From an uncultured Candidatus Saccharibacteria bacterium (GTDB lineage: Bacteria > Patescibacteriota > Minisyncoccia > UBA6257 > 2-01-FULL-56-20): 34,969 bases of DNA. Below, piece by piece: positions 16,776 through 34,485 of this stretch. Numbering within the stretch: position 1 is the first letter of the stretch; each line of letters starts with the position of its first letter. The stretch lies in assembly GCA_964639165.1 (NCBI GenBank), contig CAZXCH010000001.1, positions 1 to 34,969 of the forward strand. Reading direction: 5' to 3'. Below the pieces are notes generated by a model. That model saw only the letters and a program-made list of their open reading frames with translations, did not search any database and was not told where the DNA came from. The translations under genes were made by a program, and so were the position numbers.

Positions 16776-16816
16776 AGATAAAAAACACCCCATGCTTAGA
16801 AAAGCATGGGGTGTTT
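16776..16816 (-). terminator. intrinsic terminator (15-bp stem, T-run on the minus strand)
   Basis: AAACACCCCATGCTT-agaa-AAGCATGGGGTGTTT, followed on the minus strand by TTTTTTATCTC. Confidence 0.8.
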
Positions 16817-19878: not shown

Positions 19879-19907
19879 AAAAAAATAAGCGCGGACGCTT
19901 ATTTTTC
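19879..19907. terminator. bidirectional intrinsic terminator
   Basis: AAAAAAATAAGCG-cgga-CGCTTATTTTT, with 7 T on the minus strand and 5 T on the plus strand. Confidence 0.75.
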
Positions 19908-27040: not shown

Positions 27041-27847
27041 ATGATCATCTTCCTCTACGGGCCGGACGATTATCGCCGCTCCGAAAAGAAGCGTTCTATC
27101 ATAGCGGAGTTTTCCAAAAAGCGATCGGAGATCGGGCTTGGTTTTTTCGATCTTGAAGAAAAGACGACGCTTGAATCGCTCGGTGAGTTTTTGAAGACGC
27201 AATCCATTTTTGAAACAACAAAGCTTGCGGTACTGGAAAATGCGTTCGAGCTCGAAGCACCGAAGCTCGCCAAGCTGTTAAAGCCGTACGTGGAAGAAAA
27301 AAATATCACGATTTTAATTACGGAGAAGGACAAGCCGGTGAAGGCGCTCGCGTTCCTTTTGGAGAAGCCGACAATCTCGCAAAAGTTCGAACAGCTTGCG
27401 GGCGCGGAGCACATGGCGTGGCTCGCAGCCGAGGCAAAGAAAAATGACGTGGCGCTGACGCCCTCTGCCGCACAATTCTTATCATCGGTGTATGAGGGCG
27501 ATACCTGGGGGCTGGTGACGGAGTTGCAAAAGCTTGCGGGGCTGAACCGCGGCGTCGATGGGAGGACTGCCGCCAAGCCGATCGATAAAAAAGATCTGGA
27601 TGTGTTCGATCTTGAGGTTGCGCCGAACTATTGGGGGCTCATCAACGGGCTAAAGAATTACGACATCAAGAACCGGCTGTACGCGTTTGAGACGATGCTC
27701 GCGGCGAACGATCCGCCGGCAAAGATCTTCAATATTCTCGCATCCCAGTGGCAAGAAAAAACCCCGCACATGGCGGAGTATGATCTGGCCGTGAAGTCCG
27801 GGAAGGTGGACTACGAAGAGGCCTTGGTTGATTTGTTGATAAGCTGA
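27041..27847 (+). CDS. holA: DNA polymerase III delta subunit-like protein
   Basis: The N-terminus MIIFLYGPDDY, the all-helical 268-aa protein and its size and pattern resemble short HolA proteins. Sequence similarity could not be verified here. TATAAT at 27029-27034 lies 6 nt before the ATG. Confidence 0.5.
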   Translation: MIIFLYGPDDYRRSEKKRSIIAEFSKKRSEIGLGFFDLEEKTTLESLGEFLKTQSIFETTKLAVLENAFELEAPKLAKLLKPYVEEKNITILITEKDKPVKALAFLLEKPTISQKFEQLAGAEHMAWLAAEAKKNDVALTPSAAQFLSSVYEGDTWGLVTELQKLAGLNRGVDGRTAAKPIDKKDLDVFDLEVAPNYWGLINGLKNYDIKNRLYAFETMLAANDPPAKIFNILASQWQEKTPHMAEYDLAVKSGKVDYEEALVDLLIS

Positions 27848-28086
27848 GAAAGGCGGCTCTTGAGGCGGCTGGCCTTGTTCTTCTCGATGACTTTGGCCTT
27901 TGCGGCCTTATCAAGCGCCTTGAAGACGAGCGGGAGGATTTTCGCGGCCTCTTCGTTCTTCTTTGCGACGACAAGCTTGCGGAAGGTGACAACCTGAAGT
28001 TTATAGGCTTCCTTGCGAACAACATTCCGCTTGTGGCGGGTCACGTTCTGGCGGAGCGCCTTCTTGGCTGACTTGGTGATTGGCAT
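27811..28086 (-). CDS. rpsT: 30S ribosomal protein S20
   Basis: MPITKSAKKALRQN...KNKASRLKSRLSQLINK aligns with S20. The start was trimmed to 28086. The 3' end overlaps holA by 37 bp in convergent orientation. Confidence 0.9.
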   Translation of the reverse strand: MPITKSAKKALRQNVTRHKRNVVRKEAYKLQVVTFRKLVVAKKNEEAAKILPLVFKALDKAAKAKVIEKNKASRLKSRLSQLINKSTKASS

Positions 28087-28093
28087 AAGTGAT

Positions 28094-28121
28094 AGTATAG
28101 CGGGAAATCCTGTATTTACAA
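28094..28121 (-). promoter_or_regulatory. rpsT promoter; -10 lies 7 nt from the ATG
   Basis: The minus strand reads TTGTAA-16 nt-TATACT-7 nt-ATG. Confidence 0.55.
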
Positions 28122-28127
28122 GGGGCA

Positions 28128-28157
28128 TTGACAACATCACTATTATTATGTTAATAT
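28128..28157 (+). promoter_or_regulatory. strong sigma70-type promoter driving the triple-hairpin leader
   Basis: TTGACA-18 nt-TAATAT, with a TGT extended -10 element at 28149-28151. Confidence 0.6.
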
Positions 28158-28163
28158 ATGCGG

Positions 28164-28257
28164 AGCGTCCGGCTGGCTAAGCCGGTTTGCCAATTGCCTT
28201 TCGGGGAGGCTATCCCCGAAGAATCCAAGCTGGCTAAGCTTGGATAGGAGAATCAAA
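28164..28257 (+). promoter_or_regulatory. structured 5' leader with three hairpins that share the pentaloop GGCUA
   Basis: CCGGCT-GGCTA-AGCCGG (28169-28185), TTCGGGGA-GGCTA-TCCCCGAA (28200-28220) and ATCCAAGCT-GGCTA-AGCTTGGAT (28223-28245). The SD AGGAG (28246-28250) and ATG 28258 follow. Confidence 0.6.
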
Positions 28258-28797
28258 ATGAAGCGTTCTACCAGACTCACGCTGTTCGCCGGAAGTCTCG
28301 CCCTCGCAGAAGTGATTGAATTCATCGCCCTCTTCTTTTTCCCATGGTCGTCACACTTCTTCACTCTGTCGCTTGTCACTATTATTGCGATGGTAGTGGA
28401 GTGGTCCGGTATGATGAAGTCCCTAAGGAAGGCTAACTTCTGGAGAGCGAGAGAGGATCGATTTTTCAACGCCACAGGACATGAGGCTCCTCATTCGTAT
28501 AAGGAGGTTGAGGCAATGAAAGCTATCAACGAGCAGGTTGCAGGCCTATTCATTCCCGTCAGGGATGCTATGACTGAACTTGCTCAGCTAAAACGCCAAC
28601 GCCTTACCGTTTTTAATGCGAAACGATGTGCCAAGCTTGAGGAAGAGATCAGGAAGGGCCGGGAACACTATACCAAAGGCAGAGAGGCCGCACTTCCTTT
28701 CTTAACCCTCCCATTCCGGTTAATTTCCGAGCGTAAGCTTTCTGAGGCGCTCAATGAACGCCTGCGTCGGCCTCCGATACCATTTCGGCCGCGCTAG
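28258..28797 (+). CDS. small membrane protein (2 TM) with a coiled-coil/basic C-terminal half, unknown function
   Basis: AGGAG lies 7 nt upstream of ATG 28258, and the ORF-track TTG at 28240 was rejected. An intrinsic terminator follows. Confidence 0.65.
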   Translation: MKRSTRLTLFAGSLALAEVIEFIALFFFPWSSHFFTLSLVTIIAMVVEWSGMMKSLRKANFWRAREDRFFNATGHEAPHSYKEVEAMKAINEQVAGLFIPVRDAMTELAQLKRQRLTVFNAKRCAKLEEEIRKGREHYTKGREAALPFLTLPFRLISERKLSEALNERLRRPPIPFRPR

Positions 28798-28823
28798 AAG
28801 CTCTGCAGTCTATTCTCCCAAAC

Positions 28824-28857
28824 CAGGGACCGCTTTATGTGGTCCCTGTCCTTTTTT
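28824..28857 (+). terminator. intrinsic terminator
   Basis: CAGGGACC-gctttatgt-GGTCCCTG, followed by TCCTTTTTT. Confidence 0.8.
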
Positions 28858-28901
28858 ATATTTCTGATGCATTCGCGCTTTACCCGCGCTATAATGAACG
28901 C

Positions 28902-33360: not shown

Positions 33361-34485
33361 ATGTCAATAAAATCTCTCACCATTGTGGCGATCGTCGCCG
33401 CGGCGACGATCGGCGAAGGGGTCTTCGCGGTGCCATATGTCATCCAATCGTCGGGATGGCTGGTCGCGCTTGGCTATTTCATCGCGGTCATCGCGATCGT
33501 TTCCGTCGCGCATATTCTTTATTTGCGGACACTTGCGGCGACCGATGAGAAGGAACGGCTGCTTGGTCTCGCCCGGAACTATTTCGGCGCGCCGGGATTT
33601 TGGATCGGATTTGTGGCGATCGTCATCGGATTGCTCCTTGGATTCGTTGCTTACCTCGTGCTCGGGACGCAGTTCTTGCAAATACTCTTTCCGGGAATAT
33701 CGCCCAGCCTCGCGCTTGGAATATTCTGGGTTCTGCTCGCGGCGCTTGTGTGGGGGAGCGAGGGGCGGATTGCGCGATTTGAGGCGGTCGGCATTGCGCT
33801 CGTTTCATTCGCAATACTTTTCATCTTCTTTACCGGGCACCCCGGCGCACCACTTTACGGCGTACCGCTCGCGGTGCCAGGGCTTGCCAGCTCTTTCCTT
33901 CCGTTCGGCGTCGCGCTTTTCGCCCTCGCCGGATGGACGGGTGTCGAGCCGGTCTACGAACTTGCGTATAGGAAAAATGGCGGCAACGGCAGTCCGATGC
34001 CGGGAACATTCGCGCTCTTTGCGCTTGGCACCGCTTTTGCGGGATTGCTCTACTGGCTTTTTGCGGCTGGCGTGATCGGCACGGTGCCGCACGTGGCAAC
34101 GGATACAATCTCCGGTATCGCCGGATGGCCGGTGTGGCGAAAAGATATTCTCGCCGCAGTTGGGTTGCTCTCGGTGGCAGTCGTGTCGGTGCCGATCGCG
34201 CGCGAGATTCGCGGGGCGATGGAAAAGGATCTTGGCTGGAATAGCTTTGTTGCGCGTGCGCTCATCATTGTGCTCCCGCTCGCGGCGGTACTCTCCGGAT
34301 TCAACAACTTCCTCGCGATCGTCGGTCTTGTCGGCGGTGTCTTCATTAGTACCCAATATCTTTTGATTATCTCCGTCGGCCGGCGGACGCTCGCGCTCAC
34401 TACGCGCGAAAAGGTGCTCCTCGACGTAGTCGCCATTGCGTTCATTCTCGCCGCGGTTTACGAGGTCTGGCATTTCGTAGTATAA
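33361..34485 (+). CDS. amino-acid permease-like transporter (about 11 TM)
   Basis: 374 aa and highly hydrophobic. The N-terminus AATIGEGVFAVPYVI is typical of amino-acid/aromatic amino-acid permeases. Confidence 0.55.
   Translation: MSIKSLTIVAIVAAATIGEGVFAVPYVIQSSGWLVALGYFIAVIAIVSVAHILYLRTLAATDEKERLLGLARNYFGAPGFWIGFVAIVIGLLLGFVAYLVLGTQFLQILFPGISPSLALGIFWVLLAALVWGSEGRIARFEAVGIALVSFAILFIFFTGHPGAPLYGVPLAVPGLASSFLPFGVALFALAGWTGVEPVYELAYRKNGGNGSPMPGTFALFALGTAFAGLLYWLFAAGVIGTVPHVATDTISGIAGWPVWRKDILAAVGLLSVAVVSVPIAREIRGAMEKDLGWNSFVARALIIVLPLAAVLSGFNNFLAIVGLVGGVFISTQYLLIISVGRRTLALTTREKVLLDVVAIAFILAAVYEVWHFVV

Follow-up and report, generated by a model that had tools for sequence, protein, structure and literature searches.

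A structured leader RNA with reiterated pentaloop hairpins upstream of an orphan membrane protein gene in Patescibacteria: a candidate translational operator

Here we show that an orphan gene encoding a small membrane protein is preceded by a conserved, sense-strand, gene-specific structured leader RNA. We propose that this leader is a translational operator whose reiterated loops would serve an oligomeric RNA-binding protein, possibly in an autoregulatory arrangement, and we put the probability of this reading at roughly 45%; protein binding, translational repression and autoregulation are the parts of it that we infer. Patescibacteria (CPR) are uncultivated and have reduced genomes with few recognisable regulators, and to our knowledge very little is known about their gene regulation. 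The leader is a compact candidate for a cis-regulatory RNA, well supported by covariation and simply built, with pentaloops on interchangeable stems next to the Shine-Dalgarno (SD) sequence. The membrane protein to which it is linked diversifies rapidly and is encoded in a hypervariable slot flanked by housekeeping genes, so that the leader may point to a gene on which hosts or phages exert selection. With about 10 protein clusters among 1.8 billion, it is very narrowly distributed, and its general importance is limited accordingly.

The window, i.e. the whole 34,969-nt stretch of DNA that was analysed, has the local gene order pyrG, holA, rpsT (minus strand), the open reading frame (ORF) studied here, ruvA and a Mur ligase gene. 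Its genome is of the Paceibacteria/Minisyncoccia type within Patescibacteria: among GTDB species representatives, the best matches to its S20 come from MAGs labelled Paceibacterota, Parcubacteria or Minisyncoccia. The features of the ORF and its leader are as follows:

28128..28157, plus strand: sigma-70-type promoter, found by consensus scan with 10/12 matches and with the TG present
28164..28164, plus strand: predicted transcription start, A28164, the A of the conserved 5'-AGC, 7 nt past the -10 element
28165..28190, plus strand: hairpin P1, made up of P1a, P1b and pentaloop L1 (28175-28179, GGCUA)
28165-28167 (GCG) with 28188-28190 (UGC), plus strand: basal helix P1a, a 3-bp extension of P1 in the minimum free energy (MFE) fold
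28169-28174 (CCGGCT) with 28180-28185 (AGCCGG), plus strand: helix P1b, 6 bp, perfect
28191..28198 (CAAUUGCC), plus strand: single-stranded linker J1/2 between P1 and P2
28199..28221, plus strand: hairpin P2 with pentaloop L2 (28208-28212, GGCUA); 28200-28207 (TTCGGGGA) pairs with 28213-28220 (TCCCCGAA)
28223..28245, plus strand: hairpin P3 with pentaloop L3 (28232-28236, GGCUA); 28223-28231 (ATCCAAGCT) pairs with 28237-28245 (AGCTTGGAT), 9 bp
28246-28250, plus strand: SD sequence AGGAG, abutting P3 and conserved in alignments
28258-28260, plus strand: ATG start codon of the ORF, conserved in alignments
28258-28797, plus strand: the ORF, encoding a 179-aa orphan protein with two N-terminal transmembrane (TM) helices and a helical, basic C-terminal domain
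28824..28858, plus strand: intrinsic terminator of the ORF, a 10-pair stem (28824-28848) plus a T run

The first-pass annotation had described three hairpins bearing the same loop, GGCUA, on different stems, and both reading of the sequence and a hairpin scan confirm them. The MFE fold of the window leader (RNAfold) consists of exactly P1, P2 and P3 plus the 3-bp extension of P1, with a folding energy of -44 kcal/mol, all hairpins being very stable; the stem of P2 comprises 8 bp, or nine pairs including U28199·G28221. An exhaustive scan of the 35-kb window for perfect hairpins found GGCTA pentaloops on stems of at least 6 bp only in these three, and perfect pentaloop hairpins of at least 6 bp with any loop numbered 13 vs a mean of 10.8 in shuffles. 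The earlier judgement that such a cluster of identical loops is unlikely by chance holds, as none of 300 dinucleotide-preserving shuffles of the window (0/300) gave even two same-loop hairpins within 100 nt. In a looser scan for the general loop type G-R-N-W-A defined below, few hairpins lay elsewhere: the window has 10 besides those of the leader, vs 8.7 expected in shuffles.

Direct repeats within the leader are limited to an 11-nt sequence present twice (GCTGGCTAAGC) and one 9-nt near-repeat (AGAATCCAA at 28220-28228, AGAATCAAA at 28249-28257), which flanks P3 and the SD and may be due to chance. Type III antitoxin repeats (ToxI-like) and other tandem-repeat RNAs were rejected as candidates, there being no tandem repeats and the stems being unrelated. 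Other long perfect hairpins in the window carry tetraloops (16783-16816, 15 bp; 19881-19906, 11 bp; 33389-33412, 10 bp), the first two of which resemble terminators. The pentamer GGCTA occurs 23 times on the plus strand of the window vs five times for its complement TAGCC, a skew that is probably a coding-strand or codon effect.

The promoter consists of a -35 element TTGACA (28128-28133), an 18-nt spacer and a -10 element TAATAT (28152-28157), which a TG at 28149-28150 extends to TGtTAATAT (28149-28157). A matching layout (TTGACA/TTGACT, 17-18 nt, TATAAT-like) precedes the leader in the other lineages described below (L095, L104, L105, L107 and L109). Exactly 6 variable nt separate the -10 element from a conserved AG(C/U) in all six lineages, and it is at this AG(C/U) that sequence conservation starts in each of them; the fixed position of the AG supports the promoter, and the start near 28164, that had been proposed from the window sequence. 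The transcript is predicted to start at about A28164, and P1a begins at +2 of this predicted transcript. The description of the ORF as a small membrane protein gene with its own terminator was likewise accurate, and a terminator scan found none between 28164 and 28257. An attenuator was rejected, as the leader has no GC-rich hairpin followed by a U tract.

The divergent rpsT gene has its own promoter at 28121..28094, with a -10 element TATACT that ends 7 nt before the ATG at 28086 (window 28084-28121, minus strand), and it appears to be leaderless, in a layout conserved in relatives. A role of the hairpins as a leader of S20 (rpsT) was rejected because of this separate promoter and apparent leaderlessness; in addition, the element occurs without rpsT in L095, L104, L105, L107 and L109, and is absent at 80 related rpsT loci. 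At its other end, rpsT (minus strand, ending at 27811) converges with holA (plus strand, ending at 27847), and the 3' ends of the two genes overlap by 37 nt (27811-27847), an overlap that is also present in the gene calls of L004.

Homologues of the ORF were collected by word-indexed searches of 5.8 billion proteins, which yielded four and then seven clusters, and by an exhaustive HMM search of 1.84 billion representative proteins, which yielded 10 clusters at 50% identity. The window clade, in which the gene adjoins rpsT, comprises L001-L005, L089, L091/L092 and L103, and further lineages were found by protein similarity alone: L104 (cluster P0009), L105/106 (P0010), L107/108 (P0011) and L109/110 (P0013). 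Contigs of the L095 type (P0007) were first met through a DNA 19-mer (L087/L088) and later regained through the protein. As L087-L091 were retrieved with the 19-mer of P2, their identity in P2 is by construction; L103-L110, on the other hand, were fetched through protein homology only, and all of them carry the leader. L111 (P0012), in which the gene is cut at the contig end, gave no readable leader, and L086 was rejected as a carrier because its 19-mer match is a chance one within a high-GC coding region. Overall, the leader is present in every ORF homologue for which upstream DNA could be fetched (six lineages in five genomic contexts). The shared arrangement is a sigma-70 promoter, 6 nt, AG(C/U), P1, a conserved linker, P2, P3 and the SD, with L105 as the exception, having two hairpins and no P2. 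In every lineage, 0-3 nt separate the last hairpin from the SD. Neighbourhoods include rpsT/ruvA in the window clade, a CBU_0592-like gene and RseP in L095, an ABC ATPase and a desaturase in L107, and an isochorismatase gene in L104, among others; since these are unrelated, the leader travels with the gene and not with the locus.

Covariation was assessed in a MAFFT alignment (A6) of 13 leaders from six lineages. Standard pairs make up 96.4% of 334 pair cells, and compensatory double changes are found in 13 of the 27 pairs (31 cells). None of 500 column shuffles matched the observed pairing values, a control that ignores phylogeny in a set where seven of the 13 leaders belong to one close clade and the independent lineages number about six. 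Sliding the partners by ±1-3 columns lowers pairing to 25-56%, and RNAalifold returned the same four helices without structure input. In P1b, 98.7% of cells are paired, and its variants are U·G, G·U and a single compensatory change. P2 is paired in 97.4% of cells, with compensatory changes in 7 of its 9 pairs, and P3 in 97%, with such changes in four pairs. P1a is paired in 87% of cells in the MAFFT alignment, which places L107 one column out of register; on inspection by eye, L107 keeps P1a as GUG/UAC. Between close relatives, DNA identity in 60-nt bins is 93-100% in the leader vs 35-65% in the ORF and 75-95% in the flanks.

The per-pair table sums to 37 G·U cells. Because G·U would become an A·C mismatch on the opposite strand, the structure belongs to the sense-strand mRNA, and the earlier view that the hairpins are folded RNA in the ORF's 5' leader is thereby borne out. 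The same cells, which are mismatches in DNA as well as on the other strand, weigh heavily against taking the inverted repeats for DNA operators of a transcription factor acting on the divergent rpsT and ORF promoters. Perfect palindromes near two promoters of the window would suit such a role; the three half-sites, however, have no common sequence and share only an asymmetric centre, their position relative to their own promoter and SD is kept in contexts without rpsT, and close relatives that have rpsT but lack the ORF have no hairpins. This explanation is largely refuted, and we give it next to no credence.

The loops follow the consensus G-R-N-W-A. Across the 38 loops of the 13 leaders, the first and last positions are always G1 and A5, the second is either G or A, and the fourth is U with GGAAA as the only exception; GGCUA accounts for 28/38 loops, followed by GGAUA (5), GAAUA (2), GGAAA (2), GACUA (1) and GGUUA (1). 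Loops can be mixed within one leader, as in L107 (GGCUA/GGAUA/GGCUA) and L109 (GAAUA/GGAUA/GGAAA), and the constraint is therefore on a loop type rather than on one word. The expectation that orthologous leaders would conserve the loops is thus upheld for the loop type, but neither a strict GGCUA nor a set of three hairpins is obligatory (L105 has two). Loops are spaced 24-33 nt apart.

Exposed, identical 5-nt loops would also suit kissing interactions with a trans-acting RNA (an sRNA, or a tRNA or rRNA segment with UAGCC or UAUCC), and their variation mainly at position 3 is what a co-varying partner would lead one to expect. The differing loops within L107 and within L109 are nevertheless hard to fit to one complementary partner, no antisense promoter was predicted, and a 7-nt reading of the loops has no U33 and so no mimicry of a tRNA anticodon loop, which makes a trans-acting RNA very improbable. 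A tRNA anticodon mimic, T-box or glycine-codon reading of the GGC/GGU loops was rejected, given the lack of U33 and the occurrence of GAC, GGA and GAA loops.

The linker J1/2 is A/U-rich and has an invariant AAU core, and the linker of the window holds GCC, complementary to the GGC that opens each loop. J1/2 always includes a 3-5 nt complement of the loop start, which changes along with the loop: GGC loops occur with a GCC linker in the window clade, L095 and L104, and GGA loops with UCC/UUC in L105, L107 and L109. This complementarity, which rests on one or two evolutionary events, may reflect pairing. A compact tertiary fold of the riboswitch or sensor RNA kind could be built on it, with one pentaloop pairing to J1/2, the others docking, and translation modulated in response to a small ligand, an ion or temperature; the conserved linker nucleotides and a downstream membrane protein without assigned function would be in keeping with this. 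We nevertheless rate such a fold as distinctly unlikely, considering that the loop-linker change amounts to one or two events and only 3-5 bp, that a multi-helix junction and an expression platform are both lacking, that one hairpin is dispensable (L105), and that the linker, by directly adjoining P2, is sterically implausible as a pairing partner of L2.

When the folds of the leaders were compared, no conserved SD-sequestering helix was found: the predicted probability of the SD being unpaired ranges from 0.14 to 0.78, and its partners differ between leaders. An SD-sequestering alternative fold was rejected for the same reason, the pairings of the SD with early codons not being shared. In the window, a weak pairing is predicted between the SD and codons 3-5 (GUUCU.CC, 28247-28272); these codons are nucleotide-conserved in the window clade, and the SD pairing is not conserved in other lineages. 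As the leader contains neither a terminator nor a conserved helix that sequesters the SD, any control would need a trans factor. Against the operator proposed here, a stable hairpin adjacent to the SD could also act without any protein.

The leader may alternatively be an mRNA stability or processing element that has no dedicated regulator, P1 and the stable hairpins shielding the transcript from 5'-end-dependent RNases and the loops being kept because a general RNase, a chaperone or folding kinetics needs them. The position of P1a at +2, the stability of the hairpins (-44 kcal/mol), the lack of a conserved SD-sequestering alternative and the single copy in the sampled DNA all agree with this. 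Protection, however, calls for stems; it does not require each hairpin to keep a G-R-N-W-A loop as its stem changes, and it leaves the 0-3 nt spacing between hairpin and SD and the conserved linker unexplained; we consider a stability element unlikely.

The structure was also sought elsewhere. A covariance model built from seven leaders (R1) found no further copy in 534,745 bases (the window plus 85 related loci), the remaining hits being fragments with E of at least 0.02, and the hairpins are absent from close relatives that have rpsT (S20 88-95% identical) but lack the ORF. On the basis of this search, which covered about 0.5 Mb made up of the window and locus fragments, the leader looks gene-specific rather than part of a regulon in the sampled DNA, and the idea of a CsrA- or TRAP-style regulon, raised by the first-pass annotation, finds no support in the absence of any other copy from about 535 kb of related DNA. 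A REP or attC-like element was rejected in view of the single copy in the sampled DNA. A phage origin was rejected as well, with no match of the hairpin-2 19-mer in viral contigs and no hit in phage genomes by tblastn; the three matches to a second leader pattern lacked the hairpin architecture and were due to chance. The impression that no known riboswitch or leader family is involved agrees with Rfam 15, in which no leader hit reached the gathering threshold for the window, none was found at E<=10 for 27900-28500, and the distant leaders (L104, L105, L107 and L109) had no match at E<=1.

Family-wide conservation of the ORF product, judged from 14 aligned sequences, is limited to the motif IRxxRxxYxxxR...F..(R)SERK(R/L), in which R132, R135, R142 and E158-R159 are invariant. 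The last 60 aa carry a net charge of +1 to +11 with 10-20 K+R and are positive in all members, and both termini are probably cytoplasmic by the positive-inside rule. The AF2 model has a pLDDT of 84 and an all-helical C-terminal domain. The product has no match in Pfam, NCBIfam, PHROG, PADLOC or a PDB sequence profile, and Foldseek with the AF2 model returned nothing meaningful.

The ORF is hypervariable even where the genomes are otherwise nearly identical. Between the window and close relatives (L001, L003, L089 and L091) the protein is 39-62% identical, vs 93-97% for RuvA, 85-99% for S20 and 85-93% for HolA; its first five codons (MKRST) and its C-terminal third are conserved, and the TM region is the most variable. 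The slot between rpsT and ruvA (window 28087-28901) is itself variable among close species. No gene occupies it in L006, L009, L010 and L015-17; in L008 it is filled by an XRE-type HTH gene, in L007 and L013 by different small membrane proteins, and in L011, L012 and L014 by unrelated genes. The residue that follows SERK(R/L) (S162 of the window; alignment A7) is Ser with GGC-type loops and Leu or Phe with GGA-type loops, a change that is suggestive of co-variation between protein and loop and is confounded by phylogeny.

In the translational operator that we propose, the leader would be transcribed from its own promoter, and it is inherited as a unit with the orphan two-TM gene of Paceibacteria-type Patescibacteria. 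It folds into two or three independent hairpins, the stems of which may change freely as long as the G-R-N-W-A loops are kept. An oligomeric RNA-binding protein would dock on the reiterated loops, a reading suggested by stems that are interchangeable while the loop type is repeated and held beside the SD. Occupation of the SD-proximal hairpin would hinder binding of the 30S subunit, and the 5'-terminal P1 would probably also shield the start of the mRNA. The product of the gene itself is the leading candidate for this protein, because the leader occurs only with this gene family, in five unrelated neighbourhoods, and because the sole conserved part of the protein is a predicted cytoplasmic, Arg-rich helical region. 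Against the operator stand the lack of a recognisable RNA-binding domain in the product and its membrane anchoring, which is unusual for a translational repressor.

A stronger version, which we regard as doubtful, is that promoter, leader and ORF together make up a feedback module complete in itself, in which the Arg-rich helices of the membrane-anchored protein would bind boxB-like loops and stop its own translation. If true, the protein would represent a new kind of RNA-binding membrane protein, and Patescibacteria would have their first defined cis-regulatory RNA-protein pair. More speculatively still, the hairpins might be bait for a phage protein of the arginine-rich motif (ARM) type, gating a hypervariable membrane effector in a variable slot.

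Among known systems, the E. coli thrS operator has two same-loop hairpins with a single-stranded linker between them, the proximal one directly upstream of the SD; its own product, the homo-oligomeric ThrRS, binds the two hairpins in competition with the 30S subunit. The window leader likewise has same-loop hairpins, a single-stranded linker and an SD-adjacent hairpin. In contrast, the thrS loops are 7-nt mimics of the tRNA anticodon with U33 and CGU, whereas those of the leader are 5-nt G-R-N-W-A loops; read as 7 nt (UGGCUAA, AGGCUAU), the window loops have G at position 33 and are no mimics of the thrS type. The window leader further differs in that up to three hairpins are present and that the product, a candidate binder, is an orphan membrane protein. 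T-box leaders differ as well, with no T-box hit in Rfam and no terminator in the leader.

The boxB hairpins of phages lambda and P22 are bound by the arginine-rich motif of N. Like boxB, the hairpins described here have short stems, and their pentaloops always start with G1, end with A5 and have a purine in second place; the conserved core of the ORF protein family, an Arg-rich helix, may be likened to the protein side of the boxB-N pair. As pentaloops of the boxB type are recognised by arginine-rich helices, this partial resemblance would fit the gene's own product as the binder. Measured against the GNRNA pentaloop family as defined for boxB-type hairpins (PMC9830547), the leader loops have the G1 and A5, and GGAUA, GAAUA and GGAAA of the relatives fit GNRNA. 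The window GGCUA (C at position 3, three times), however, lacks the position-3 purine, as do GACUA and GGUUA, and the leader is for this reason not classed as boxB-type. In addition, boxB is a single hairpin that acts with boxA in transcription antitermination, unlike an array beside the SD. Compared with a lambda-type nut site, the leader has two or three hairpins, no terminator within it and one after the ORF, and there is no phage, N or Nus context at the leader.

Leaders targeted by CsrA/RsmE, and the corresponding sponge RNAs, resemble the present leader in having several hairpins with one short loop motif and a site at or beside the SD. CsrA/RsmE dimers repress translation and need GGA, usually in an ANGGAN loop. 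The window loops have GGC instead, GGA being found only in L105, L107 (P2) and L109, at loop positions 1-3, and no regulon-like spread was seen in the 535-kb covariance-model search or the hairpin scan of the window. The series of (G/U)AG triplets recognised by TRAP (2-3 nt spacing) and HutP (4 nt spacing) is absent from the leader. The 5'-terminal stabiliser hairpins of the ompA and aprE leaders place a stable stem a few nt from the 5' end of a long leader. A stable stem also lies a few nt from the predicted 5' end here, although stabilisers need neither a conserved loop on several hairpins nor a fixed spacing to the SD.

Our literature search found no match for this leader. Functionally, the proposed mechanism would resemble that of the E. 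coli thrS operator or of coat-protein operators. A leader of reiterated hairpins at the SD is known as a kind; what is new is the motif, its loop rule and its association with this gene.
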